32,486 nucleotides of DNA from Escherichia phage IMM-001: the sequence record MF630922.1; one strand, given 5' to 3'. Position 1 is the first letter of the stretch, and every line of letters begins with the position of its first letter. The notes below the pieces were generated by a model. That model worked only from the letters and a program-made list of their open reading frames with translations, had not been told where the DNA came from and searched no databases. Below are positions 1,225-32,486 of the stretch, in pieces. A program made the position numbers and the translations under genes.

Positions 1225-1269
1225 AATAGCACTTTTTGCCTAACGCTATAACGCCATGGATGGCATAAT
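1225..1269 (+). promoter_or_regulatory. Conserved IR promoter-like cassette copy 1 (AATAGCAC-ttt-TTGCCTAA, 22-nt spacer, CATAAT)
   Basis: Member of 9-copy motif family; followed by conserved leader caccacatcaacagcgagatgg. Confidence 0.55.
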
Positions 1270-1306
1270 CACCACATCAACAGCGAGATGGAGTACAAAG
1301 ATAAAA

Positions 1307-1543
1307 ATGGCACACCAAATTGAAGTTATGAGTGAAATTAATGACCTATTACTTACATTGGTTAAGATTATTGACAGACCAGTAGTGAGTTACTTAGTTG
1401 GTTTTGAAGAGATATTTATCGAGTTTTACAAGCAACCAAATAGCCCTTGCTTTGGTGTAGTTAGTGAGACTTACAGATTCAAAAGTTGCAGCGAACTAAG
1501 AGATTGCGTCAACAGTTTAACCAGTAGCACCACTGATTGCTAA
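1307..1543 (+). CDS. hypothetical small protein (78 aa); start moved to internal ATG downstream of the promoter-like cassette
   Basis: ORF-track start 1256 lies inside the -10-like element; the 5' extension is conserved at nucleotide, not protein, level. Confidence 0.4.
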   Translation: MAHQIEVMSEINDLLLTLVKIIDRPVVSYLVGFEEIFIEFYKQPNSPCFGVVSETYRFKSCSELRDCVNSLTSSTTDC

Positions 1544-1599
1544 ACCTGCCGCAAGGCCATTTGATATAGTGGCCTTATTGAAGCAAAGCAAAAGAGGGT

Positions 1600-1833
1600 G
1601 TGATGGAAAGGAACAAATACGAAAGAGAGATTATCGGCATTAATGGCGAGAGGGCTATTGTTGATGTGTATCGCACGCTATCAGCATTCAGTGTTACAGA
1701 CCCAGCATGTCAGCATGCTATCAAAAAGCTGCTCTGCATGGGTTTGCGTGGCCACAAGGATGTCATTACTGACCTTGATGACGCGATAGACTCGCTAAAT
1801 AAGATGAAAACTTACCTGGAGCAAACGAAATGA
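1600..1833 (+). CDS. hypothetical protein (77 aa)
   Basis: ORF with 4-nt ATGA overlap to next gene. Confidence 0.45.
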   Translation: MMERNKYEREIIGINGERAIVDVYRTLSAFSVTDPACQHAIKKLLCMGLRGHKDVITDLDDAIDSLNKMKTYLEQTK

Positions 1834-2132
1834 TTACAATTAACCTGTCAGACAAGCAAGCCGCAACTCTTAAGCAGCTACTATCAAGCCAGCCAATGCG
1901 GTGCTCAGCGGTCGAGTTCTCAGGGATGGTCAAAGATGTTTGCACTCAAATCAGCAACCAGCAGTTCGATGTGTCAGACTTTGAGTCATCAAGGCAGTAT
2001 GAGTCACTGTCAATCGAGAGTGTTGGCCTCACCCAAAAAACCGAGCTATATAAAAGTATAGGGTGGATTATAAAGGAAAGCTCTCAGAATGAAGGATACC
2101 TAACTAACTGGGATGATGAGACTAATAAATGA
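1830..2132 (+). CDS. hypothetical protein (100 aa)
   Basis: ORF in translationally coupled chain. Confidence 0.45.
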   Translation: MITINLSDKQAATLKQLLSSQPMRCSAVEFSGMVKDVCTQISNQQFDVSDFESSRQYESLSIESVGLTQKTELYKSIGWIIKESSQNEGYLTNWDDETNK

Positions 2133-2275
2133 TTTACATTCACACTTATTACACAGGTAAGTTTAATAGCGTTAAGCATGTTCGGGTTTATGAGGACATT
2201 GATGAGGTTTTGGGCCAGTGTCGTGTTCTGGGAGGTGACATTAAGATTTGCAGGTTGATTCAAGTGATTTTATAA
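2129..2275 (+). CDS. hypothetical small protein (48 aa, below ORF-track threshold)
   Basis: ATG overlaps upstream stop; own stop overlaps motif copy 2. Confidence 0.3.
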   Translation: MIYIHTYYTGKFNSVKHVRVYEDIDEVLGQCRVLGGDIKICRLIQVIL

Positions 2276-2319
2276 ATAGCACGAATTGCTAAACAATCGC
2301 CGGAGCAATCCGGCATGAT
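2275..2319 (+). promoter_or_regulatory. Conserved IR promoter-like cassette copy 2 (AATAGCAC-gaa-TTGCTAAA, 22 nt, CATGAT)
   Basis: Motif family; leader aacacatcgacaacgagatgg follows. Confidence 0.55.
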
Positions 2320-2350
2320 TAACACATCGACAACGAGATGGAGTAGAGAG

Positions 2351-2560
2351 ATGAAGGTCAAGATTATTGAAGTTGGCATTGCTGTAGATGACGAGCTAAG
2401 CCTTGCGGATTGCGGTTTCCAGGTTGGTGATGTGGTGGAGGTTTCCGGTCAGTACAAAGATGGAAACTTATCAGTTAAGGCGATTCGTGAAACAAATTTC
2501 GTATCAATCGGAAATGAAGTCAGCATCCAGGAAGGCGAATACGAGGTGATTGAGGAATGA
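2351..2560 (+). CDS. hypothetical small protein (69 aa)
   Basis: Internal ATG with GGAG upstream; ORF-track start 2315 lies in the promoter-like element. Confidence 0.4.
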   Translation: MKVKIIEVGIAVDDELSLADCGFQVGDVVEVSGQYKDGNLSVKAIRETNFVSIGNEVSIQEGEYEVIEE

Positions 2561-2736
2561 AATTCAAGCAAAGTAACCCTAAGCTGCAAGCCAACCACTT
2601 CGATGGCTACTCAACATTCATTATTGCACAGGCTTGCGGAATGCGTGATGAACCTCAGGTTCACACCATCCACTTAACCGAGGAGCAGGCTAGAGAACTC
2701 GCTTATGAAATTCTTGAGCAATTGAATAAGATTTAA
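2557..2736 (+). CDS. hypothetical small protein (59 aa, below threshold)
   Basis: ATGA overlap with upstream stop; ends just before the RBS of the HNH gene. Confidence 0.35.
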   Translation: MKFKQSNPKLQANHFDGYSTFIIAQACGMRDEPQVHTIHLTEEQARELAYEILEQLNKI

Positions 2737-2745
2737 GGTGATAGA

Positions 2746-3111
2746 ATGAAATTAACAAAGTTACAAAGAGATGAACTAAAGTTTAAGCTAGGTGGATTCT
2801 GCGCATACTGCGGCTGCGAACTCGGTGATAAGTGGCATGCTGACCATATGAAGCCAGTAATCAGGTATGATGGTAAAATGGTGCACGATGAGCTTGATAA
2901 TATTTCGAACCTTGTCCCGGCGTGCCACGCTTGCAATCTGCATAAGCACTGCAATAGTGTGGAGGATTACCGGAGAATTATTGACGATGGTAGGCGGGAG
3001 TTTTTGGCATCCGGCAAGGGTAAGGCGCTCGTTCGCATGGGGCTGGTTGATATGAAGATGGATGATATTGTGTTCTGGTTCGAGAAGTTTGAGAAATTGA
3101 ATAAGATTTAA
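2746..3111 (+). CDS. HNH endonuclease (121 aa)
   Basis: Cys pairs CAYCGC and CHACNLHKHC with HADH...N...H spacing typical of HNH nucleases; RBS aaggtg. Confidence 0.8.
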   Translation: MKLTKLQRDELKFKLGGFCAYCGCELGDKWHADHMKPVIRYDGKMVHDELDNISNLVPACHACNLHKHCNSVEDYRRIIDDGRREFLASGKGKALVRMGLVDMKMDDIVFWFEKFEKLNKI

Positions 3112-3588
3112 CGCGTATAGAACGCGTTCTAACTAACAATAATTTAAATGAGGTGATTGCATAATCAAGGTCGTATACATCGGTGAGGATGATTATATGG
3201 CGCTTTTAAAGCACGGCGACGTCTTCTGTTCATGGACTGTTAGTAGTGATGGTAACTATTACATTATTCAAAATAAGAATGGAGAGGAAATTTACCTCTC
3301 GAAAGATGAGGTAGCACTTTACTAATGGATAACTACGAATCACCAAGCCAGTGGGCTAAGCGCATGATGGATGAGGCTAAGACTGGCGAAGAGTCAATGC
3401 AATACTTCGAGCTAATGAATCTATGGAAAGAGCGGGAGGATAAGAAAAATGCTTAACACGTGCTTTTTCCGAACTATCAGGAGTTTGTTGAGGATTTAAT
3501 TTACTTTCACGATAAATACGGCGACACGTTTGAGTGCGACGGTGATAACAACGAAGTTTTAGCAACTTTTGATAGAGGGATCGATGTA

Positions 3589-3633
3589 AATAGCACAAAT
3601 TGCTAAACAAGAGTGGCAAGGATGTCATATAAT
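3589..3633 (+). promoter_or_regulatory. Conserved IR promoter-like cassette copy 3 (AATAGCAC-aaa-TTGCTAAA, 22 nt, TATAAT)
   Basis: Motif family; leader ttcatcaaacaacgagatgg follows. Confidence 0.6.
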
Positions 3634-3662
3634 TAATTCATCAAACAACGAGATGGTAGAAA

Positions 3663-3902
3663 ATGTTCGGATTAAACGAGGCGCATTTCAATGCGGTCAA
3701 GAAGCAGGCTAAAAAGCTTAACGATGATTACTCTAAGTTATCACCAAAAGAGCGAAAGAATGACAAGCTAGTTGCTGCGCTAATATCAGGTTTATGGGAG
3801 CCAGTATTTACTATTATCAGTCGAGACCGCTTCGTTTGGGTGGCTGGATATTTGAAGGGTCGCGTTGGCCATGATGAGAATGGGAATAGCCTTTATGAAT
3901 AA
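3663..3902 (+). CDS. hypothetical protein (79 aa)
   Basis: ORF downstream of cassette copy 3. Confidence 0.45.
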   Translation: MFGLNEAHFNAVKKQAKKLNDDYSKLSPKERKNDKLVAALISGLWEPVFTIISRDRFVWVAGYLKGRVGHDENGNSLYE

Positions 3903-4426: not shown

Positions 4427-4502
4427 GTTCTGCTGGCGTAACAGGATAACGCAAAGACCTCCTAAGTCTTAGTTACTGGTTCGAGTCCAGTGCGGAACAC
4501 CA
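4427..4502 (+). tRNA. tRNA-Arg, anticodon CCU (reads AGG), 76 nt with encoded CCA
   Basis: Hand-folded cloverleaf: acceptor gttctgc/gcggaac with one G-U, D stem gcgt/acgc, anticodon stem aagac/gtctt, loop ctCCTaa, variable agtt, T stem actgg/ccagt, T loop ttcgagt, discriminator A. Confidence 0.85.
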
Positions 4503-5683: not shown

Positions 5684-7252
5684 ATGTCTAATTTAGTTTG
5701 GGAGGAAATGACGTCAGCCGAAAAGATGGCGGTTAAGGCAATATCAACTCATAGCTTTGAGGGTTTTCTGAGGGTGTGGTTCCAACTGACACAGGGCGAG
5801 CGGTACATCCCAAACTGGCATCATAAATACCTTTGCAGGATAATTGACGAGATTATCGCTGGTGAGCGTAAGGACACCATCATTAACGTCGCTCCCGGTA
5901 GTGGAAAGACAGAAATTGCCTCAATCCACTTTCCAGCATACTCGATGGTTAAGCTGAAGAAGGTCAGGAACCTTAACATATCGTTTGCCGACTCACTGGT
6001 TAAGCGTAACTCCAAGCGAGTGCGTGACTTAATTAAGTCGGTTGAGTTCCAGGAGTTATTCCCATGCAAGTTTGGCACATGCAAGGATGATGAGCTACAG
6101 GTTCTGGATGAGTCTGGCAAAGTACGGTTTGAGTCAATCTCCAAGGCTGCTGGAGGCCAAATCACCGGCGCGAGGGGCGGCTATATAACCGATTCATATA
6201 GTGGCGCGGTTCTGTTAGATGATTTTGACAAACCAGCCGATATGCTTTCTGCCGTGTTCCGCGCAAACAATCACGTGATGCTAAAGAACACCATCCGCTC
6301 TCGTAGGGCTAGCTCAGTTAAAGGTAAAGCAACTCCGATTATCTCTATTCAGCAGCGACTTCACGTCAACGATAGCACGTGGTTCATGATGAATGGAGGT
6401 ATGGGTATCAGCTTCGATTTGATTAAGATACCAGCGCTAGTAACTGAAGATTACGTGGATACACTTCCTGACTGGATTAAGCAGCAATTCATTGATGACG
6501 TTCTATCAAGCGAATATATTGAGCGTGACGGCGTGAAATATTACAGCTACTTCCCAGAAAAGGAGTCGGTTAACGACCTGGTAGCAATGTGGGATTCAGA
6601 CAGCTATACATTCCTTAGCCAGTATCAGCAGGAGCCTGTAGCGCTTGGTGGTAATCTGATTAATGTAGAATGGCTCCAGCGCATTAGCGACACTCTGCGA
6701 CCGCCAGCTAAGTATGATTACAGATTCATGACTCTTGATACCGCCATGACAACAAAGTCATACAGCGACTTTAGTGTACTGCAACTTTGGGGTTATAAGG
6801 ATGGGAAGATTTACCTGCTTGACCAGCGACGAGGTAAGTTTGAAGCGCCGGAGCTAGAGGCTGAGTTATTGGATTTCGAGAAGATAGCAAGGGCATCCAA
6901 TCAGACAGATGGTATCCTTCGTAAAATCATCATCGAGAAGAAAGCCTCTGGCATCGGGCTGATTCAATCGGTAGGTAGGGTTATGCGGACACCAATCGAG
7001 CCATATGTGCCAGATAACGACAAGCTAACTCGCGTAATGAGTGCACTGCCTCAGATTAAGGCTGGTAACGTTATCCTGCCTGAGTCTGCAACATGGCTAA
7101 ACGGATTACTAACGGAGATTGCGGCATTCACGGCAGATGACTCGCATGTTCATGATGACCAGATTGACTGTTTAACTATGGCTGTCAACCTTGTTCTAAA
7201 CATTGCAGAGGATCCTAAATCAAGGATGATGAGATTAGCAGGAATCAAATAG
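5684..7252 (+). CDS. terL: terminase large subunit (522 aa)
   Basis: Walker A-like VAPGSGKTE near N-terminus, size and position before portal. Confidence 0.88.
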   Translation: MSNLVWEEMTSAEKMAVKAISTHSFEGFLRVWFQLTQGERYIPNWHHKYLCRIIDEIIAGERKDTIINVAPGSGKTEIASIHFPAYSMVKLKKVRNLNISFADSLVKRNSKRVRDLIKSVEFQELFPCKFGTCKDDELQVLDESGKVRFESISKAAGGQITGARGGYITDSYSGAVLLDDFDKPADMLSAVFRANNHVMLKNTIRSRRASSVKGKATPIISIQQRLHVNDSTWFMMNGGMGISFDLIKIPALVTEDYVDTLPDWIKQQFIDDVLSSEYIERDGVKYYSYFPEKESVNDLVAMWDSDSYTFLSQYQQEPVALGGNLINVEWLQRISDTLRPPAKYDYRFMTLDTAMTTKSYSDFSVLQLWGYKDGKIYLLDQRRGKFEAPELEAELLDFEKIARASNQTDGILRKIIIEKKASGIGLIQSVGRVMRTPIEPYVPDNDKLTRVMSALPQIKAGNVILPESATWLNGLLTEIAAFTADDSHVHDDQIDCLTMAVNLVLNIAEDPKSRMMRLAGIK

Positions 7253-7293
7253 CACTTTTTGCTAAAGACACTCCGCCATTGGTGGCGTATAGT
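7248..7293 (+). promoter_or_regulatory. Conserved IR promoter-like cassette copy 4 (AATAGCAC-ttt-TTGCTAAA, 23 nt, TATAGT), overlapping the terL stop
   Basis: Motif family. Confidence 0.55.
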
Positions 7294-7696: not shown

Positions 7697-7718
7697 CCAT
7701 AAAAGCTATGTTAAACTA

Positions 7719-7742
7719 AGCCCCTAACGGGGCTTTTTTATT
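7719..7742 (+). terminator. Rho-independent terminator
   Basis: agcccc-taac-ggggct then T7. Confidence 0.7.
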
Positions 7743-7753
7743 GGAGCAAGAAA

Positions 7754-10609: not shown

Positions 10610-10631
10610 TAAATATAGCAGTGTAAATAAG

Positions 10632-10652
10632 CCTCCTTCGGGAGGTTTTTTT
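10632..10652 (+). terminator. Rho-independent terminator
   Basis: cctcc-ttcg-ggagg then T7. Confidence 0.7.
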
Positions 10653-10679
10653 GTAATCAAATGCTGCCTATGTTATATT
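10651..10679 (+). promoter_or_regulatory. Sigma70-like promoter (TTGTAA, 17 nt, TATATT)
   Basis: Hexamers at canonical spacing just after the terminator. Confidence 0.4.
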
Positions 10680-15564: not shown

Positions 15565-15571
15565 AAATTAA

Positions 15572-15593
15572 CCCTCTTCGGAGGGTTTTTTAT
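15572..15593 (+). terminator. Rho-independent terminator
   Basis: ccctc-ttcg-gaggg then T6. Confidence 0.75.
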
Positions 15594-15594
15594 T

Positions 15595-15639
15595 GATAGC
15601 ACTTTTTGTTAAAGGCTATTGTGTTGATTGCTGTATAGT
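15595..15639 (+). promoter_or_regulatory. Conserved IR promoter-like cassette copy 5, variant (GATAGCAC-ttt-TTGTTAAA, 22 nt, TATAGT)
   Basis: Motif family; leader tcattcatcgaaacg. Confidence 0.5.
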
Positions 15640-15672
15640 TCATTCATCGAAACGAAATGATAGATTAATGAA

Positions 15673-15924
15673 ATGAACAACGTAAAAAATATCATCAAAC
15701 TTGCTGCTGCTCTTGGTGCTTTCTACCTGGCAATTCAGATTGTCAACCCAACTAGTGGCGCAACAGCAAACTCTGATGCAATAAAGTATGAAACTAAATT
15801 CAATAGCGCATATTCATACTGTGAAAAAGTTGCTGGAGACAAGGTTAATCAGATCATGACTCATGGTCGCGAAGTGTGCACAGAAGTTGCTCACAAAATT
15901 GCAAAAGAAGACGAATCAAAGTAA
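15673..15924 (+). CDS. small secreted or membrane protein (83 aa)
   Basis: N-terminal hydrophobic stretch LAAALGAFYLAIQIV after a Lys-containing n-region; two Cys in mature part. Confidence 0.45.
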   Translation: MNNVKNIIKLAAALGAFYLAIQIVNPTSGATANSDAIKYETKFNSAYSYCEKVAGDKVNQIMTHGREVCTEVAHKIAKEDESK

Positions 15925-16274: not shown

Positions 16275-16588
16275 AACGCGCAGTATACCTACAATACCAG
16301 TCGCCGCCAACGGATTCCGAACTTGAAGCTATAGGAATGAAACGTTCCGACTACGAAGGTGAAGAGCCCGAGGAGTTATTCTTCGATGAAACAATGATGC
16401 AAAGCTGGGATGTGTACTGTGCTATGTCAACACAATGGCGAGTAGGAGCTTGCGGCGCCACAGGTCTTGATTACAATTGCCTTCCATTCTTGTTCAAAGT
16501 CTATAAAATAGATGATGAAGAAATGGCACTTAACGATATCAGAATACTTGAGGCTAAAGCCTTAGATATGATGAACGCCAAGAAATAG
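15960..16588 (+). CDS. tail assembly chaperone GT-like fusion via putative -1 frameshift at A_AAA_AAC (16265..16271)
   Basis: The -1 frame is open from 16235 through 16588 and overlaps the end of the G-like ORF; the downstream ORF has no convincing RBS. Confidence 0.5.
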
Positions 16589-16613
16589 CCATCCTTCGGG
16601 GTGGCTTTTTTTA
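16587..16613 (+). terminator. Rho-independent terminator
   Basis: agccatcc-ttcg-gggtggct then T7. Confidence 0.7.
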
Positions 16614-16626
16614 TTATGGAGACAAT

Positions 16627-19599
16627 ATGGCAACTAACGAAATTGCTGGTATCACGCTAGCCGTCGACGTCGCTCAGGTCGATAGAGGTACGCAGTCCTT
16701 ACAGAAATTCAGGCAAGCAAACGAGCAAGCTGCAACAGGCATTAATAGCTTCGTTAATGCTGAACTTGTAGCCAAGACTCAAGCAAGGGATACAGCAAGG
16801 CAGCTTGAGGAGCAGCGAAAATCTTTCGCATCGCTTCAGCAAGTAATCGACCCAACTGCTGCTAAATTCCAGAAGTTGCAGAAAGCGGCAACCGAATTGG
16901 ACAAAGCATTTGAGTCTGGGCTGGTTCCTGATGATGAGTTCTTCAGGCTTGGCTCTGTTATTGAAACTCAAATTAATAAGCTAAACAGGTCCAGGGCTGC
17001 GTTGAGTGAAGAGGGTAGGGCTGCACTCCAAGCTTCAATAGATAAAGAAAAAGCAACAGCAACCGCGCAAAAGTTCATTCAATCCCTTGAGAACGAGGCG
17101 AATGCGGCAACTCTCACAAGGACTGAGCTGCTTCAACTTAAGGCTGCTCAGCTAGGCGTTAGCGACCAAGCGGCACCGATTATCGACAGGATTGGTAAGG
17201 CCGCTGAGGCGTCAGCAGTTCAATTGCAGAAGCAAAGCTCAGCTTTTGTTAAGTCAGGTTTAAGCGCAGGGCAGTACAAGCAAGCAATACGACAGCTCCC
17301 TGCTCAGATTACAGATATCGGAACCTCACTTGCTGGCGGCATCCCAATCTGGCTGATTGCAATTCAGCAAGGCGGTCAGATTAAGGATAGTTTCGGCGGT
17401 ATTGCGAACACGGCAAGGTTTGCACTTGCGGCCATTAATCCATTGACAGCTGTTGTTGGTACTTTGGGGCTGGCTCTTGGTGCTCTTGGTGTTGCAGCTT
17501 ATCAGGCTGATAAGAACACTCGCGGACTAGCATCAACGATAACGCTTGTTGGCAATTCAACTATCACTTCAACGGCACAGATAAATCAGGTTGTTGACGG
17601 GATTGAGAAAACAACATTAGCCACGCGCGGTCTTATTCAGGAAATAGCAAATAGTCTGGTAGCAAACGGTAATCTTACGCTTACGCAGATAGATAAGATA
17701 ACCAAGGCAACAGCGCAGTGGGCGACTGTAACATCAACCGACTCAAAGACTATCCTTGGATACTTTGACCAGATCACAAAGGACCCAATAAAGGGACTTA
17801 CTGACCTTGATAAGCAATTTAACTTTCTTCAGTATGGGCAGTTAAAATATATTGAGAATATCAGGAAGACGGCTGGAGAAACAGAGGCAGTAACCGCAGC
17901 CACTGAACTATTCGCTGAAGTTATGGAAAATAGGCTAGCAGACGTAGCGCTAAGCCTCAACCCTCTTGAAAGCGCGTGGAATAGCTTCAGGAAGTTTGTA
18001 AGTGAGATCTTGGATGACATCAGCAAAAGGACGCTTGGGGCCCTTAACTTAATAACTGACGTTGTTGCTGGTACGATTGAGCAGATAAGGTCACTCATAA
18101 ACTCCGGCGACATTCTCTTGGGTGAGTTTGCTATAGCAGCAACCAAGACGCTTCAGTCAATACCCGGCCTTGGTGATATAGGTAATGAGGCAATTGCTGA
18201 GCAGCAAAAGATTGTTGATGCAGCCAAGAAGCAAAATGAGGAGTTAGCAAAAAGCATATCTGAGCGAGATGCTAGAATCAGGAAGGGTGAGCTTGGCTAT
18301 GTGGAGAGAAATAATAACACTAACCTGAATGGAAATAATGCATCAACTGATAAGGAGTTCGGAGCAAGGAAGAAGGCCCTAGCAGACGAGCTTGATGCCA
18401 TAATGAAGGCTAGAAGGGAGAGGAACAAAGCTGTAAAAGAAGAAAGGGATTTAACCTTATCTTATGAATCTGGCGTTCTTGCACTTCAGGCTCAATTGAA
18501 GGTTTTGCAAGAGCATAGAACGATAAACGATGTAATAAGCAACGAGCGCAAGCAGCTATTTCAGGAAGAGGCTAAGTTTGCAATACTCGAGCAAAGATAT
18601 GCTGATGGTAGCCTAACCAAGTCTCAAGCCAAACTGCTCTCGCAGAAGGATATCATTCTTGAACAGGCTAAACAGAAGGCTGAACTAGGAGATCAGATTG
18701 TTCTTCAAGAGAGGTCAAACAAGTTACTTGATGATAACCTAAAGAAGACTGTTCAGATTACAAATGAGGCAAATAATGTTTCTCTTGCTGCTAATTTATC
18801 TGACAGGGAGAAGCAAAGGGCGAAAGAGCTTCAGGCGCTTCAATCCAATCAGTTAAACAAAGGTGGCTCTGTAGATGACGCTGATTTCCAGGCTTTACTG
18901 GAAGCAAGGCGTAATTTTTATGCTCAAGAGGACGCGCTACGTGAAAACTGGCTAGCCGGTGTGCAGTCATCATTCGCTAATTGGGCAGAGAGCGCGACAG
19001 ATGCATTTTCTATAGCTGGTGAATTGACCACTTCCGTGTTTACCGGAATTACAGAGCAGATTACCAGCCTTGTAACAACTGGCACGGCAGACTTCAGGAG
19101 CTTTACCGTTGAAATCCTGAAACAGATTGCCAAGATTGCAACACAGCTCTTAATTGTTAAGGCGATTGAGTCAAGTTTAAGCAGCTTCGGCGGAACTGGC
19201 GGCGCTATTGGTTCAATTGGTGGCGCGCTTGGCTTTGCTGGCGGTGGATATACTGGTGATGGAGGTAAGTACCAACCTGCCGGAACTGTGCACAAAGGTG
19301 AATTTGTTTTCACCAAAGAAGCAACCAGCAGGATTGGAGTCAAGAACCTGTACAAGCTTATGCGAGGTTATGCAAATGGCGGTGCTGTTGGTGGGCCATC
19401 TGGTTATGCTAATGGTGGTGCTGTCGGCGGTACTAATGTCAGTGTTGGCGGCGTTACTGTTAACGTAAATTCTGGAATCGGTGGCGGCAATGATGCTAAG
19501 GCTATAGAATCTGGAGTTAAGGTTATCGTGGCTGAGGAAATCAGTAAGTCATTCCAGCAGGGCGGCAGGGCGTATCAGTTCTTGCGCGGTTACAACTAA
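16627..19599 (+). CDS. tail tape measure protein (990 aa)
   Basis: Long helical protein with hydrophobic central segments and Gly-rich C-terminus, after chaperone pair. Confidence 0.85.
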
Positions 19600-19630: not shown

Positions 19631-19981
19631 ATGGCATTGCAAACATTCAATTGGTGCTTAAACGTACTCAATGGCGGCTCTTCATTTACCAATGCCAACA
19701 ATATTAGGGTTGTATCATTTGGTAATGGTTACCAACAGCGTGGCACTGGAGGATACAGGACGAACAAGAGGACGTATACTGTTAGCTACGTTGGCCGTGA
19801 GTGGGAGGCAGTAATGAACTTCTGCCTTGATCACATCGTAAAACCTTTCGCATGGACTACGCCACAGGGTGAGTTAAAGATGTTTGTTATTCAGCAGGAT
19901 AGCATTAGCGTCTCGCCGAGCACAAAAGAAGTTCAGACTGTTAGTATGCAATTTACTGAAGTTTTCACTTCAATGAGTTAA
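19631..19981 (+). CDS. minor tail protein, lambda M-like (116 aa)
   Basis: Position and size after tape measure. Confidence 0.55.
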   Translation: MALQTFNWCLNVLNGGSSFTNANNIRVVSFGNGYQQRGTGGYRTNKRTYTVSYVGREWEAVMNFCLDHIVKPFAWTTPQGELKMFVIQQDSISVSPSTKEVQTVSMQFTEVFTSMS

Positions 19982-19985
19982 ACTA

Positions 19986-20009
19986 AGGCCCATAAAGGGC
20001 CTTTTTTTA
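19986..20009 (+). terminator. Rho-independent terminator
   Basis: aggccc-ataaa-gggcct then T7. Confidence 0.7.
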
Positions 20010-20020
20010 TTGGAGAGAAT

Positions 20021-25100: not shown

Positions 25101-25549
25101 GTCTTACTTACAATGGAGTTCAGTACAGTTCTGGGATGAGCATGGAGCTAACAGGTTCTGATGGTAATGTTCGTAGCCAGGTCATCTTTGACGCTAACAG
25201 GTTCGCGATCAGTAATGGTGTTAGTTCCGGTTCCGGTCAGTGGTCATTGCCTTTCGTAGTTGAGAATAATCAGGTCTTCATTCAGAGCGCAGTAATTCAG
25301 GACGGTTCAATCACTAACGCGAAGATTGGTAACAGGATTCAATCTAACAACTACGTGGCTGGATCTCAAGGATGGGCGATTGACAAGGCAGGTAGCGCCG
25401 AGTTTAGTAACGCAACTGTAAGGGGGAATTTATACGCAAATAACGGTAACTTTGCATTTAACGGAACAAACAACACTGTACAGATTAACAACAACGGAAT
25501 TACAGTTAATTTACCGAATGGTGGCAGGGTTGTAGTTGGAGTGTGGTAA
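22163..25549 (+). CDS. central tail fibre / host specificity protein, lambda J-like (1128 aa)
   Basis: Size and position after I-like gene; long multi-domain protein. Confidence 0.8.
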   Translation: MAQDIKIYGSKGGSSKQKQPVEQPDNLISVNKVKVLLAVSDGEVDNSFSLKDLYLADVPVQNQNGTYNYEGVTAEFRPGTQSQDYIAGLEGASSEVQVNREITNSTPYIIAVNNTQLSAIRVKLYWPRLINQESNGDLNGTTCEYAIDLSVDGSTYSEYTRGVANGKTTSGYDRSIRVNLPAEFSSALVRVRKITADSESSTLVNGMQITTYQEVIDAKFRYPLTALVYVEFSSDLFPNGIPAISIKKKWKLIRVPTNYNPETRTYSGTWNGTFKMAYSNNPAWVLYDLVTNQRYGLDQRELGITIDKWGLYEAAQFCDQMVPDGKGGVEPRYLCDVVIQQKVEAYQVIRDICSIFRGLTFYDGEQIGIVVDKPRQPSYVFTNDNVVDGLFNRTFGSDKSLYTVANVQFDDVENSYQQDVEPVFELEATRRFGYNPVDLTAIGCTRRSEANRRGRWLLKTNLRSETISFTTGLEGMIPMIGEVIAVNDQAWSSNYTLNLSGRIESVSGLQVFVPFKIDAAAGDRILINKPDGMPEYRTIASVSEDGMTLQLNTAFSFNPQPDTVFAIDKENLALQQYVVTGIQKADSDGDDAFGYSITAVEYDPNKYDEIDYGVNIQDRPTSIVEPDTLLAPENVQVSSYSKVVQGISVETMVITWDKVQYAKTYTVQWRKENGNWINVPRTANTEVDIEGIYAGIYQVRVRAVSDTENVSAWSEIVSASLTGKIGTPSAPTVITASDDEVFGIMVKWGFPDNSTDTSYTELQQVADNGDGTYTPENASLLTLVPYPSYEYWHTTLPAGKVIWYRARLIDKIGNVSPWTDFVMGMASDDVSAIIGEIKVDIENSEGFKYLQQNAIESNGAIQAQAESIIENTLANDGDVRRMTKENSKRKAEFIQAVNLIADEERARVEALTQLKAQIDDEIVASLTRIDTALAEETQARTTADTALSARLGENEAALNEKLDTYVTADSIGAQYGIKLGLTYNGVQYSSGMSMELTGSDGNVRSQVIFDANRFAISNGVSSGSGQWSLPFVVENNQVFIQSAVIQDGSITNAKIGNRIQSNNYVAGSQGWAIDKAGSAEFSNATVRGNLYANNGNFAFNGTNNTVQINNNGITVNLPNGGRVVVGVW

Positions 25550-25553
25550 ATGA

Positions 25554-25579
25554 TTAGGCCCCTTTTGGGGCCTTTTCTT
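25554..25579. terminator. Bidirectional rho-independent terminator between convergent genes
   Basis: aggcccc-tttt-ggggcct with T-runs readable on both strands. Confidence 0.7.
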
Positions 25580-26870: not shown

Positions 26871-27578
26871 GTTTATTCTATTTTTTGCGACATTAAAATA
26901 CTCAGTATCTAGCTCTATACCTATAAATGACCTGTTTGTGTTTACGCATGCTACGCCAGTTGTTCCGCTACCCATGCAGTTATCAAGAACTAAGTCACCC
27001 TCGTCAGTGTATGTTTTTATTAGGTACTCCATCAAGGAAACCGGCTTTTGCGTTGGGTGTAGTGATGATTTCTGCTTGTCGCTAGCCATCTTTATCACAT
27101 CCCTTGGGTATCTCATTGTTGAATCATAAGATAGTGATTCGAAATTCTGATCTCCATAGTTTGTTCCATTGTCGTTCCTCTTTGTTGCTGTTTTTCTTTT
27201 GTGACCCTCTGTCATTTGCGGGTTGTATTTGTAAGGTTTTTTGTAGAAAACAAGTATGTTTTCATGAGCCTTCATCGGAGCTCTCTTGGCATTAAGGTGT
27301 CCGGTTGCATGTGTTTTTTCCCATATCCACTCATGCTTCAACATTTCAAGATTGGAGCACCCGAGTACTTTATCGAATGGTGTTTGCGCCGTAAGTACAA
27401 TTGCACCCTTGCACACCCTCCTGTATTGAGTCCATAGCAAGTCAAGGTCTATAACTGAATCCCACTTGTTTCTGGTTGTTCCGTATGGTAAGTCGCACAA
27501 AATCATGTCAATTGAATTGTCTGGGATTTCTTTCATAAGCTCAAGGCAGTCGCCATTCATTAATTTAATCATTTCCAT
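26856..27578 (-). CDS. orphan DNA methyltransferase, beta-class, DPPY motif (240 aa; may start at second ATG 27572)
   Basis: Motif IV ILCDLPYG near N-terminus and motif I VLDNCMGSGTTG near C-terminus; no adjacent restriction enzyme gene. Confidence 0.8.
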   Translation of the reverse strand: MEMIKLMNGDCLELMKEIPDNSIDMILCDLPYGTTRNKWDSVIDLDLLWTQYRRVCKGAIVLTAQTPFDKVLGCSNLEMLKHEWIWEKTHATGHLNAKRAPMKAHENILVFYKKPYKYNPQMTEGHKRKTATKRNDNGTNYGDQNFESLSYDSTMRYPRDVIKMASDKQKSSLHPTQKPVSLMEYLIKTYTDEGDLVLDNCMGSGTTGVACVNTNRSFIGIELDTEYFNVAKNRINSTNS

Positions 27579-27603
27579 CTCTCATTGCGTTTTTGTTGTG
27601 ATG

Positions 27604-27646
27604 ATTATACATAACCAAGCAAGGGTGTCTTTAGCTATTCGTGCTA
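27604..27646 (-). promoter_or_regulatory. Conserved IR promoter-like cassette copy 9, variant (TAGCACGAATAGCTAAAG, 22 nt, TATAAT)
   Basis: Motif family on minus strand upstream of the MTase gene. Confidence 0.55.
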
Positions 27647-27745
27647 CTGGTTACGCGTAACCGATGTAAATCGATGTATACCATATGCATCCGCTGGAAA
27701 TCGTATACGCATTGTTACGCCTAGTTACGCCATAGTTACATTAAA

Positions 27746-27806
27746 ATATCTATATATATCAACCTTTTACTCTTATTATTATTATTATATATATTACTGT
27801 GTATAT
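27746..27806 (+). repeat. AT-rich repeat, copy B, containing (TTA)5 microsatellite at 27773..27787
   Basis: Shares core with 229..297; lies in the 535-bp ORF-free region between divergent blocks. Confidence 0.8.
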
Positions 27807-28113
27807 CATGTAACCACTGTTCTGGAGTGTTCCGGCTATAATTTTTATATCATGTGATTTTATACAGTATTTCGCGGCACATATACCAATGCACCACCCG
27901 CTAAAATCGGTATACACGGTATACGCATTATTTACATTGAGCTATAGCGGCCCAGCCGGAGCAGTTAAGCGTAACTAATGCCAATGTCTACACGTAATTA
28001 CAAAATTATACGCGTATACTTGATTAATTAATCGGGGATACCAATTAGACGTGGTGACAAGCGTTCTGCATAATTATCACATCGAAAGCAAACAACCATA
28101 GAGAGATAGAGAA

Positions 28114-29283: not shown

Positions 29284-29744
29284 ATAAAGATTGCTGGCAG
29301 ACACCATTAGAATTATTTAATCAACTAAATGATAAGTACAATTTCCAGGTTGACGCGTGCGCAAGTCAAGAGAATGCTTTGTGTGAGCATTTTTGGACCG
29401 AAGATGATGACTGTTTGCAGCAGGATTGGGGTGATGAAAATGATTTTGTTTGGTGCAACCCACCATACAGCAACCCATTGCCATTTGTCGAAAAGTGCCA
29501 GGAGTACGGTTACGCTGTTATGCTTTTAAATCAGGACACATCAACGAAATGGGCTAAGATAGTTTTTGAAAAATCCTCAAAGGTAATACTGTTATCAGAT
29601 AGGGTTAGGTTTATAAACCCATCGACGCTCGAGATTGGGAAGTCAAACCCAAAATGCCAGATGATTGTAGTGTTCGATAATAGTGTGGAGCATGGGCCTG
29701 TCATAAGGTGGTGCTCAATAAAAGATATTCACAAAAACATCTAA
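29280..29744 (+). CDS. Dam-like phage N6-adenine DNA methyltransferase (154 aa)
   Basis: N-terminal CWQTP and catalytic NPPY motifs; ATG 29280 overlaps upstream stop. Confidence 0.7.
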   Translation: MNKDCWQTPLELFNQLNDKYNFQVDACASQENALCEHFWTEDDDCLQQDWGDENDFVWCNPPYSNPLPFVEKCQEYGYAVMLLNQDTSTKWAKIVFEKSSKVILLSDRVRFINPSTLEIGKSNPKCQMIVVFDNSVEHGPVIRWCSIKDIHKNI

Positions 29745-29788
29745 ATAGCACTAATTGCTAAAGATAAAATTAACAGGTGTGGTATGAT
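29744..29788 (+). promoter_or_regulatory. Conserved IR promoter-like cassette copy 6 (AATAGCAC-taa-TTGCTAAA, 22 nt, TATGAT), overlapping the Dam-like stop
   Basis: Motif family; leader accacatcaacaacgagatgg. Confidence 0.55.
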
Positions 29789-29819
29789 TACCACATCAAC
29801 AACGAGATGGTTTAAGCAA

Positions 29820-29963
29820 ATGAAAGTATTTAAAAGTAAAATATGTAGCTACATTAAAATGGCCATTAATCGAAACGATGATATTATAAAAACAATAGAT
29901 ATAAAACCTGGCGACGAGGTTTTTGTCATAATCGAAAAGTCTATAGCGTTAGAACTTGCATAA
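29820..29963 (+). CDS. hypothetical small protein (47 aa, below threshold)
   Basis: ATG downstream of cassette copy 6; the in-frame upstream ATG 29784 lies in the promoter-like element. Confidence 0.3.
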   Translation: MKVFKSKICSYIKMAINRNDDIIKTIDIKPGDEVFVIIEKSIALELA

Positions 29964-31131: not shown

Positions 31132-31140
31132 TAAAAGATA

Positions 31141-31163
31141 AGGCCCCTTTCGGGGCCTTTTTA
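31141..31163. terminator. Bidirectional rho-independent terminator
   Basis: aggcccc-tttc-ggggcct then T5; convergent genes on both sides. Confidence 0.7.
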
Positions 31164-31691
31164 TGGCATGTTTACTCGAATTGAAACGAACGAGTCAGAA
31201 GGTATATCTATAGGGTCTCCGTTACTGAAGCCGTCAATTTTATTTCTCGCGAAAGACGGAGATGAATCGTGAGTGCGATGATAAGTTTTAACAACTATTG
31301 AACCATCAGCTTCAACCTCGTAATCTAGCCATATTCTAGGCTGCTTATTCAAGTCTACAGGTACCTCAAATCCACCGTTAACACCGCCCCAAGAAGTGTC
31401 AGAATTTAGGCCAAGCACACCTGATACCTTATAAACACCAGTAGAAACCCTCTCCACTGAAGCTCCTTCTGATTCCTCGTTTGTTTCAAAACTCCCATCT
31501 CGGAATACCTTAATTATAGGTGAGGCCACTTTGACGAAACCGCTAGGGTCCACTGTTGTGTTTAATCCGTGTAAAAGTTCCATTACCGCAAGTCCGCCAT
31601 TATAAGTTGAGTTAGCTATATAACAACGCCTTGCCCCATAAGATATGGCAAGCTGACCCCACTCGCGTGGAGTTGGGCCAGGCATATCCAT
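31161..31691 (-). CDS. tail-fibre-like protein, C-terminal part (176 aa from first ATG); frame stays open upstream to 31970 with no start codon
   Basis: Upstream in-frame translation ...NLQNKLQARSNLGLGTSATINHGDDAGQ... looks fibre-like; no ATG/GTG/TTG in 93 upstream codons. Confidence 0.4.
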   Translation of the reverse strand: MDMPGPTPREWGQLAISYGARRCYIANSTYNGGLAVMELLHGLNTTVDPSGFVKVASPIIKVFRDGSFETNEESEGASVERVSTGVYKVSGVLGLNSDTSWGGVNGGFEVPVDLNKQPRIWLDYEVEADGSIVVKTYHRTHDSSPSFARNKIDGFSNGDPIDIPSDSFVSIRVNMP

Positions 31692-32011: not shown

Positions 32012-32179
32012 TTAATCTTCATTTTTAAACCACCTTTCTTTAAGAACCTGAGCCCAAGACTTTGCATCATCTTCTGTCATGAAGAAACTTAATTTTGGGT
32101 ACTTGTGAAACCCCTTTAACTCAACAACCCAATGACCATTATTGTGACTGTAAGAAACTGTTTTTTCTTTCATTATTAC
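32012..32179 (-). CDS. hypothetical small protein (about 55 aa from internal ATG)
   Basis: ORF-track entry starts at a GTG inside structured leader; internal ATG has gagag upstream. Confidence 0.35.
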   Translation of the reverse strand, partial: VIMKEKTVSYSHNNGHWVVELKGFHKYPKLSFFMTEDDAKSWAQVLKERWFKNED

Positions 32180-32385
32180 CATCTCTCTATATTTGCTTGT
32201 TATCGAAATCTCTTCAACGTACTCGCTACAACTCGGGATTTTAAACCCGGCCCGGCATCCTGGCAAAAGGACCCGCAAGGCGCTTTGGTGGGTTAGGTAA
32301 CGCTTCCTCACATTGCGCGGTGTCGTTCACTCTTTTTGGTTCCTTTCGGAAGTGACTCAGAGTCCAGCACCGTTTCGATGAATAC

Positions 32386-32431
32386 ATAGTAGCAACTTAC
32401 TCATGATTGAGCATTAGCAAAAAGTGCTATT
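32386..32431 (-). promoter_or_regulatory. Conserved IR promoter-like cassette copy 7 (AATAGCAC-ttt-TTGCTAA, 23 nt, TACTAT)
   Basis: Reverse complement of 32414..32431 equals copy 4 motif; leader gtattcatcgaaacg. Confidence 0.5.
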
Positions 32432-32486
32432 CGTTGGATTTATTGATTGTTGCAGCTATTGCAATGATTCACATGACTATTGCACA

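Follow-up and report, generated by a model that had tools for sequence, protein, structure and literature searches.

The stretch analysed here (the window) comprises 32,486 nucleotides of Escherichia phage IMM-001 (MF630922.1), a T1-like member of the Drexlerviridae that lies close to Braunvirinae (AN_ECEAS, CY1, and Rtp among them), and its subject is a short leader sequence that recurs between the copies of a repeated cassette and the genes that follow them. The 18-mer ACATCRACARCGAGATGG occurs exactly at positions 1274-1291, 2324-2341, and 29793-29810 of the + strand, with 0 matches in 100 dinucleotide-preserving shuffles. A fourth copy, TTCATCAAACAACGAGATGG at 3637-3656, carries one extra A relative to the 18-mer, while the core ACRNCGAGATGG is present in four exact copies and returns five matches in a one-mismatch search where 0.53 would be expected. 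An earlier note on this DNA had described a near-identical sequence after cassette copies 1, 2, 3, and 6; the exact-match search and the shuffles bear this out, and the copies are real, though the note set their starts 1-2 nt too far 5' of the exact 18-mers. The leaders have no match at or above the gathering score in Rfam 15, where the sole match in the window is a tRNA (4427-4499), and an exact-pattern scan of IMG/VR with the 18-mer found 30 unrelated contigs with one match each, a yield compatible with chance for a collection of that size.

All four leaders lie directly 3' of a -10 hexamer (CATAAT, CATGAT, TATAAT, and TATGAT in copies 1, 2, 3, and 6), beginning 4 nt past it, and the hexamer itself stands 38 nt after the start of an ATAGCAC-N3-TTGCTAAA box. 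The box is upstream of four of four leaders, with 74-82 nt separating its start from the gene start. Nine cassettes of this kind are found in the window, with box starts at 1226, 2276, 3590, 7249, 15596, and 29745 on the + strand and at 32430, 27647, and 26872 on the - strand, together with a degenerate tenth cassette, whose predicted +1 is 1577, and, at 28062, a promoter that lacks a box but has the start motif. The degenerate cassette (1527-1600) belongs to a distinct subfamily (AAGGCCAtttgaTATAGTGGCCTT ATTGAAGCAA..) that is widespread in Drexlerviridae and has longer 5' untranslated regions (UTRs) containing CAACCAATCAGAGGA. The related GAGAGATGG stands 5' of the methyltransferase open reading frame (ORF; 27583..27575, -) and of the small gene near 32179 (32187..32179, -), as had been reported.

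It should be noted that the program-made ORFs at these loci begin inside the promoter and read through the leader, which they translate as MINTSTTRW, MITTSTTRW, or ..TTSTARW, so that their shared 'N-termini' are an artefact of conservation at the nucleotide level, just as the earlier note had argued. Its further point, that the real gene begins at a later ATG, agrees with the genes at 2351 (MK[V/I]KI) and 3663 (MFGL), whose N-termini are conserved across many relatives despite unrelated upstream sequence. The products of the genes after copies 1 and 6 (1307-1543 and 29820-29963) had no tblastn match among 50,697 phage records and the genes are thus orphans, with starts that are predicted. A small gene starting ATGAAAGTC lies in phage OzMSK at the same position as the gene after copy 6.

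The position of the leader within the cassette is best understood at the scale of the family. The window, together with three complete genomes and 34 IMG/VR loci identified via the large terminase, yielded 307 cassettes; copy numbers in complete genomes are 19 in AN_ECEAS, 14 in CY1, and 20 in T1. The modal 38-nt offset from box to hexamer is shared by 226 of the 282 unique family cassettes, which were kept for a profile, thinned to 139 cassettes with pairwise identity below 80%, and aligned on the -10 hexamer. In this profile the box (-51 to -33) holds about 1.5-2 bits per position and the spacer that follows ~0 bits. G-14 is present in 82% (1.1 bits) and T-15 in 46% (0.2 bits), ahead of a hexamer that is typical of sigma70 (T-12 in 85%, A-11 in 100%, and T-7 in 94%). 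A pyrimidine occupies -1 in 88% of the cassettes and an A lies 7 nt past the hexamer, at the predicted +1, in 86% (1.22 bits), after which T+2, C+3, G/A+4, A+5-7, C+8, and A+10-12 contribute 0.3-0.8 bits each. Positions +13 to +17 are purine-rich, and past +20 the information returns to ~0 bits. The consensus order is therefore box, hairpin-prone spacer, G-14, TATAaT, tacctC, A(+1)TCGAAAC.AAA, a purine-rich Shine-Dalgarno (SD) sequence, and an ATG near +25, which is the modal position of the start codon; the first ATG past +1 opens the long ORF in 107 of the 139 cassettes. As the spacer has diverged to randomness, and the coding sequence likewise, the conservation from -1 to +12 is not left over from recent duplication, and the pattern argues for selection instead. 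Placed on this profile, the 18-mer of the window most likely spans -2 to +16, from the end of the discriminator through the predicted start site and the initial transcribed sequence to the SD region.

The upstream half of the promoter is less conventional. No canonical -35 element is found 16-18 nt upstream of the hexamer; TAAACA/TAAAGA (three to four of six matches) lies at 18 nt and TTGCTA at 22 nt, and a promoter consensus scan of the window reported copy 3 only. TTGCTA was ruled out as a -35 because the spacer would be 22 nt, and a sigma54 reading of the box (TGGCAC-N5-TTGC) was ruled out by its N3 spacing and by AG in place of GG. Among the four copies TGn precedes the hexamer in copies 1 and 6, only the G is present in copy 2, and copy 3 has neither.

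Whether the conserved segment belongs to the promoter or to translation can be judged from the element against which it keeps its distance. Over +1 to +12 the information is 9.2 bits when the cassettes are aligned on the -10 hexamer and 5.0 bits for the equivalent 12 positions (-24 to -13) when they are aligned on the start codon, and in 43 cassettes with a UTR of at least 29 nt the motif stays at +1. The start motif CACATCGAAAGC also follows the box-less promoter at 28062-28090 and its orthologues in AN_ECEAS (+1 at 18925) and CY1 (+1 at 6283); in counting box-less leaders the relaxed pattern was noisy and only intergenic matches were used. As the motif keeps its distance to the -10 hexamer and is present at box-less promoters, it is tied to the hexamer and start site independently of the box. 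The box-less promoter of the window (28062-28113) may be of a temporal class that precedes that of the box cassettes.

A close likeness to this start region is found in two promoters of phage T7, A1 and A3, which are transcribed by unaided Escherichia coli RNA polymerase. T7 A3 reads TACGAT GTACCAC ATGAAACGAC and starts A+1TGAAACGAC (annotated start at nt 750 of NC_001604), and T7 A1 reads ..CAGCC ATCGAGAGGG and starts A+1TCGAGAGGG (annotated start at nt 498), compared with TATGAT TACCAC ATCAACAACGAG in copy 6 of the window and a family consensus of TATAGT-TACCYC-ATCGAAACGA. The T7 promoters differ in having good -35 hexamers and no ATAGCAC box, in a gap of 7 nt between hexamer and +1 where the cassette has 6 nt, and in transcripts with long leaders where the cassette has a 24-nt UTR ending in an SD. 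By analogy, the likeness favors the A of C-A-T as +1 and a view of the conserved sequence as the kind of start region that strong phage promoters for the host polymerase have, and predicted starts in the four copies would then be A1276, A2326, A3640, and A29795. Strong phage T5 promoters such as PN25 have a purine-rich initial transcribed sequence (..GAGAGAGGAG..) that adds promoter strength and supplies the SD. The T1-like element would be comparable, with a different sequence.

Downstream of the start region, GAGAUGG (followed by AG, UU, or UA) is the best partner of the 16S rRNA tail within the 5' UTR in four of four leaders, at -5.6 to -6.5 kcal/mol, comparable with the -6.3 to -7.0 kcal/mol of the orthologous GAGAGG with the anti-SD; copy 3 has a slightly stronger anti-SD site (-5.9) inside the coding sequence. 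The end of GAGAUGG is 6-9 nt from the true AUG in copies 2, 3, and 6, and across the family the best anti-SD 6-mer ends modally 7 nt ahead of the start codon. The suggestion of the earlier note that the element could be a non-canonical ribosome-binding site (RBS) is thus plausible as to its ribosome-binding role, with the best anti-SD partner and good spacing in three of four copies, but missed that the element is part of a promoter cassette.

Combined, these observations favor an interpretation, to which we assign a probability of about 0.72, in which the 18-mer is the start region of a promoter together with a short conserved 5' UTR that contains an SD variant, all as part of a T1-like cassette placed before many genes. 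Such a cassette would consist of a 21-nt box (AATAGCAC-N3-TTGyTAAA, about -51 to -33), a hairpin-prone spacer of variable sequence, a sigma70-type -10 hexamer often accompanied by G or TG at -14/-15, a 6-nt discriminator (TAYYYC), an A that is conserved at the predicted +1, the initial transcribed sequence AUC(G/A)A(A/C)AAC after it, and a purine-rich SD with the start codon about +25. In the window phage, the discriminator would end in 'AC', the mRNA would have 'AUCRACARC' at its 5' end, and 'GAGAUGG' would be an SD of weak to moderate strength, a variant of the GAGAGG/GAGG of relatives, which in copies 2, 3, and 6 would serve the AUG that lies 6-9 nt past it. The G-to-U change would probably have spread among the cassettes by recombination between their near-identical flanks. 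The features of the individual copies are collected in Table 1.

Table 1. Cassette features, leaders, and gene starts in the window, with the terminator/promoter overlaps of phage T1 in its own coordinates
Feature	Position	Strand	Details
Copy 1 upstream box	1225..1243	+	AATAGCAC-N3-TTGCCTAA; predicted -51..-33; matches the TLS 21-nt repeat consensus
Copy 1 -10 hexamer	1264..1269	+	CATAAT, TGG before (extended -10-like); 38 nt after box start
Copy 1 predicted 5' UTR	1276..1306	+	+1 = A1276, predicted from -10 distance and conserved C-1/A+1
Copy 1 SD-like element	1285-1293	+	GAGATGGAG
Copy 1 embedded ATG	1288	+	11-codon ORF, 1288-1323
Copy 1 likely gene start	1307	+	ATG
Copy 2 upstream box	2275..2293	+	
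Copy 2 -10 hexamer	2314..2319	+	CATGAT; spacer hairpin GCCGGAgcaaTCCGGC at 2298-2313, minimum free energy (MFE) -12.3 kcal/mol, z -4.9
Copy 2 predicted 5' UTR	2326..2350	+	25 nt; conserved start AUCGACAAC; GAGAUGGAG at 2335-2343; mini-ORF ATG GAG TAG at 2338-2346
Copy 2 gene start	2351	+	ATG, 7 nt past GGAG
Copy 3 upstream box	3589..3607	+	
Copy 3 -10 hexamer	3628..3633	+	TATAAT; TAAACA-18-TATAAT
Copy 3 predicted 5' UTR	3640..3662	+	23 nt; GAGATGG at 3650-3656; gene start ATG 3663 (MFGL, conserved)
Copy 3 embedded ATG	3653	+	Out-of-frame 19-codon ORF, to 3712
Copy 5, family-consensus leader type	15595..15672	+	ATCGAAACGAAATGATAGATTAATGAA; gene ATG 15673; 3-codon mini-ORF at +12
Copy 6 upstream box	29744..29762	+	Overlaps stop codon of upstream gene (29742-29744)
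Copy 6 -10 hexamer	29783..29788	+	TATGAT, inside inverted repeat GTGGTA..TACCAC at 29777-29794; spacer MFE -11.9 kcal/mol, z -4.5
Copy 6 predicted 5' UTR	29795..29819	+	25 nt; GAGATGG at 29804-29810; mini-ORF ATG GTT TAA at 29807-29815; gene start ATG 29820
Related cassette before methyltransferase	27573..27648	-	Box, TATAAT, AACAAAAACGCAATGAGAGATGGAAATG; GAGATGG ATG (27578) in frame with gene
Leader before small gene	32171..32187	-	GAGAGATGGTAATAATG; ATG 32182 in frame with ATG 32173
Box-less promoter	28062..28113	+	TAGACG-17-CATAAT with start motif CACATCGAAAGC; gene start ATG 28114
Terminator/promoter overlaps, T1 (L033)	38973-39001, 39998-40024, 41980-42007, 35930-35971		

Several points weigh against this interpretation. 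A literature search for mapped transcript 5' ends of any Drexlerviridae found none (a search on 'ATAGCAC' gave primer noise only), and so we infer the transcription start from spacing, Y-1/A+1, and the likeness to T7 A1/A3. There is no canonical -35 at 17 +/- 1 nt, which leaves recognition by unaided host RNA polymerase unproven, and use of the cassettes by the host enzyme is inferred; the near-invariant box suggests an additional factor. The conserved +2 to +12 could act at the DNA level, through promoter escape, or at the RNA level, through stability or S1/standby binding. On the side of translation, the spacing from SD to start in copy 1 is 13 nt, with a gene that lacks homologues to confirm the start. 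Further, the window has 12 occurrences of GAGATGG where about 3.6 would be expected, and the window is an outlier within the family in that an ATG falls at +11 to +15 in five of six scored cassettes compared with 8 of 125 elsewhere (Fisher p = 2.5e-5), a figure weakened by the fact that the cassette copies of the window are not independent. Lastly, four genomes retain a mini-ORF (ATG AGA/ATA GAT TAA) before the gene at 15673, though identity among their downstream proteins is only 57-92%. This mini-ORF opens a chain of tiny ORFs (15652-15680) that runs ATG ATA GAT TAA, a TAATG overlap, ATG AAA TGA, an ATGA overlap, and the main ATG AAC, and in which the first mini-ORF is kept in four genomes and the second is not.

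The latter points bear on a different role for the leader, in which ribosomes would initiate at the embedded AUG, translate 2-19 codons, and terminate at or beside the main initiation region, and the gene downstream would thereby have its translation tuned, blocked, or coupled. Embedded ATGs at 1288, 2338, 3653, and 29807 do open ORFs of 11, 2, 19, and 2 codons, as the earlier note had counted, and beyond the enrichment of such ATGs in the window and the conserved 3-codon ORF before gene 15673, a start-stop role draws support from the two ORFs of 2 codons, which stop 5 nt ahead of the main AUG, and from copy 1, where the 11-codon ORF overlaps a main start whose SD is poorly spaced. Two of the four leaders have 2 codons before the stop and the others 11 and 19, and a strict AUG-stop occurs in none. 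Against such a role, no SD lies 5-9 nt upstream of the embedded AUG, where the leaders have AUCAACAACGAG / AUCAACAAC instead and the sole complementarity to the anti-SD overlaps the AUG itself, inside the best-pairing sequence. The comparison with relatives is likewise unfavorable. The orthologous leaders of copy 3 have GAGAGGG (CY1), GAGAGGT (AN_ECEAS), GAGAGATTG (locus L034), and ACGGAGT (locus L043), those of copy 2 have ACGATGGAG (CY1), GAACGAGGAAG (loci L034 and L039), and GAACGAGTAAATG (AN_ECEAS), and those of copy 6 have GAACGAGGTTAA in Rtp, Rao1, DTL, and OzMSK, where the OzMSK annotators marked an RBS. The ATG is thus replaced by GAGAGG, GAACGAGG, or ACGGAG, and neither the AUG nor the arrangement of the ORF is conserved. 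Absence from close relatives, which the earlier note had held would speak against the element, is therefore seen for the embedded ATG and not for the leader as a whole.

Nor is there a consistent mini-ORF, as CGAGATG in the context of a promoter and leader opens ORFs of 2, 2, 11, 19, 16, 51, and 94 codons with inconsistent frame and relation to the main start. Across the family, upstream ATGs (uATGs) are not enriched and are, if anything, mildly depleted, with 27 in 131 cassette UTRs against 41.5 +/- 4.9 in mononucleotide shuffles and 21 in 117 against 28 +/- 4.2 under a position-specific column-permutation null, and most of them are one-base variants of SD motifs (such as ATGAGG for AGGAGG and GAGATG for GAGGTG). 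The four copies of the window share descent or gene conversion and so do not count as independent cases. The characterised start-stop sites of E. coli and the bar minigenes of lambda (AUG-AUA-UAA) are short ORFs with a normally spaced SD of their own and demonstrated ribosome occupancy. The leaders resemble these in that very short ORFs, of two sense codons, lie near a true initiation region in a phage leader, but differ in that the AUG sits in an SD-like element, lacks its own SD, and is not conserved in orthologues. The regulatory uORF proposed by the earlier note is accordingly left without comparative support, and we regard such a role as improbable and initiation at the embedded AUG as probably lacking. 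As the AUG sits inside the segment that pairs with 16S rRNA and lacks an SD, the mini-ORFs most likely arose incidentally with the G-to-U SD variant, and the excess of embedded ATGs in the window probably reflects one such variant spread among the near-identical cassettes of one genome.

A third explanation overlaps with the interpretation of the leader as a start region and would have +1 to +12, as DNA or as the 5' end of the RNA, bound by a phage or host regulator. As candidates, an activator or an anti-terminator could load at the promoter, or a factor could act on translation or stability, and together with the box centred at -42 the segment would form a phage-specific expression signal. 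Ordinary E. coli promoters are not known to show, past +1, anything near the roughly 9 bits seen here over +1 to +12, and the box is nearly invariant, has a partial dyad centred near -42, and is not accompanied by a proper -35. Against this, the same start motif is found at box-less promoters and at T7 A1/A3, for which the host polymerase suffices, and the cassette precedes both early-type and structural genes and is thus not a mark of one temporal class. Recognition of the segment by a dedicated factor seems unlikely, even if the description of phage TLS, in its section on transcriptional elements, leaves open what the box does (PMC11447400). As an observation on the box itself, the partial dyad reads TAGCA-N5-TGCTA (family -49 to -35, e.g., 2277-2291), and its centre near -42 corresponds to a class II activator position, such that a factor site is possible.

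The spacer between box and hexamer raises the last of the alternatives. Hairpin potential from -33 to +3 has a mean z of -2.5 against shuffles and a z below -2 in 58% of cassettes, and the hairpins fall into two classes, those with a 3' arm ending at about -12 and those that bracket the -10 hexamer and end at -1; examples in the window are 1253-1265, 2298-2313, and 29777-29794. This strong potential, with 3' arms often ending exactly at -1 or -12, would suit a processing site at which read-through transcripts are cleaved at or near the leader, past the hairpin, to give monocistronic mRNAs. RNase E, however, prefers a U-rich context and the leader is A/C-rich without one, the stems of 6-10 bp are too short for RNase III, and no Rfam family matches. 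The invariant A-11/T-7 hexamer directly upstream is moreover a promoter signature at the level of DNA, and in T1 four annotated rho-independent terminators lie inside cassettes with the T-rich -10 region as the U tract, which explains the hairpins without cleavage. The processing site put forward in the earlier note has no positive evidence in its favor and we consider it highly improbable. A separate family of strong intrinsic terminators (AAAnTAAGCCCC-loop-GGGGCTTTTTTAT) is present in the window at 7713-7743, 10625-10655, 15565-15595, 16583-16613, 19980-20010, 25544-25576, and 31136-31166, one of which adjoins the box at 15596.

The box also punctuates the upstream gene. It has stop codons in all three frames (1225-1243, 2273-2293, 3586-3607, 7246-7266, and 29742-29762 in the window) and in 103 of 138 cassettes it supplies the stop of an upstream ORF (same strand, at least 40 codons): 62 end on TAG at -49, 21 on TAA at -36, and 18 on TAA at either -53 or -52. 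The large terminase, for example, stops on the TAG of ATAGCAC at 7250-7252. At copy 6, Rtp, Rao1, and DTL are homologous only as far as the leader, after which an orphan gene precedes erf, although this is one case only. Similar arrangements are known in the PeSL cassettes of T4-like phages, where a short repeated promoter and stem-loop likewise lie between small, often orphan genes (PMC2839356, PMC4122927), and as in those cassettes upstream genes end within the T1-like cassette and, in the one case of copy 6, genome homology ends inside it. The two have no sequence relationship, belong to different phage families, and differ in that the stem-loop of the T1-like cassette is inside the promoter spacer. 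The arrangement suggests that T1-like cassettes may be sites of recombination.

The box corresponds to a 21-nt intergenic direct repeat, aaATAGCACnnnTTGnTAAAA, described in the transcriptional-elements section for phage TLS and also noted there for T1, Rtp, and Rogue1, ~76 nt upstream of start codons, with a stoperator, an enhancer, or an UP element considered as its function (PMC11447400). The four leaders lie 50 nt downstream of this same repeat in the transcriptional direction, and the repeat stands 74-82 nt before their start codons compared with the published ~76. A fixed-distance -10, a conserved start and leader sequence, and spacer hairpins are not mentioned in that section (PMC11447400). 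A more far-reaching possibility is that of a composite, phage-specific cassette in which the box acts as a three-frame stop and factor site, followed by the spacer hairpin, the -10, and an mRNA 5' end read by a factor that the phage encodes or recruits, with the whole serving as a recombination joint and the AUGs embedded in the SD as a tuning device (decoy or start-stop). This remains tentative and is, on balance, doubtful.

Several other features of the window fall outside the cassettes. AT-rich non-coding duplications connect 220-303 with 27737-27812 and 26-60 with 32435-32469; the TACAATATAATATCTATATATATCAACCTTTTACT copies are 94% identical, TATTATTATTAT..ACTGTGTATA repeats are present in both regions, and TGATTGTTGCAGnnTTTGCAATnATT is found at both ends of the window with 80% identity. 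These duplications sit in two large intergenic regions without boxes, which may be early control or origin regions. A gene for tRNA-Arg (anticodon CCT) lies among small early genes at 4427-4502. The ~200-nt region from the cassette at 32430 (-) to the gene near 32176 was considered as a structured RNA and rejected, as it folds no better than shuffles (z = +0.43) and its Rfam match is sub-threshold.

The element described here adds a new and clearly bounded part to a repeated cassette that was already known, and does not amount to a new kind of system. For annotation, it removes the false N-terminal extensions ('TSTTRW') and provides a rule for T1-like genomes, where the gene start is to be sought about 25 nt past the conserved C-A-T, which itself lies 50 nt past ATAGCAC. 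Should the composite, phage-specific cassette prove true, it would answer the question about the 21-nt repeat that was left open in 2024. The 21-nt repeat is now linked to a -10 at fixed distance, a start region like that of T7 A1/A3, an embedded hairpin, and the stop codon of the upstream gene, and these linked features provide a testable model for the punctuation of transcription in T1-like phages.

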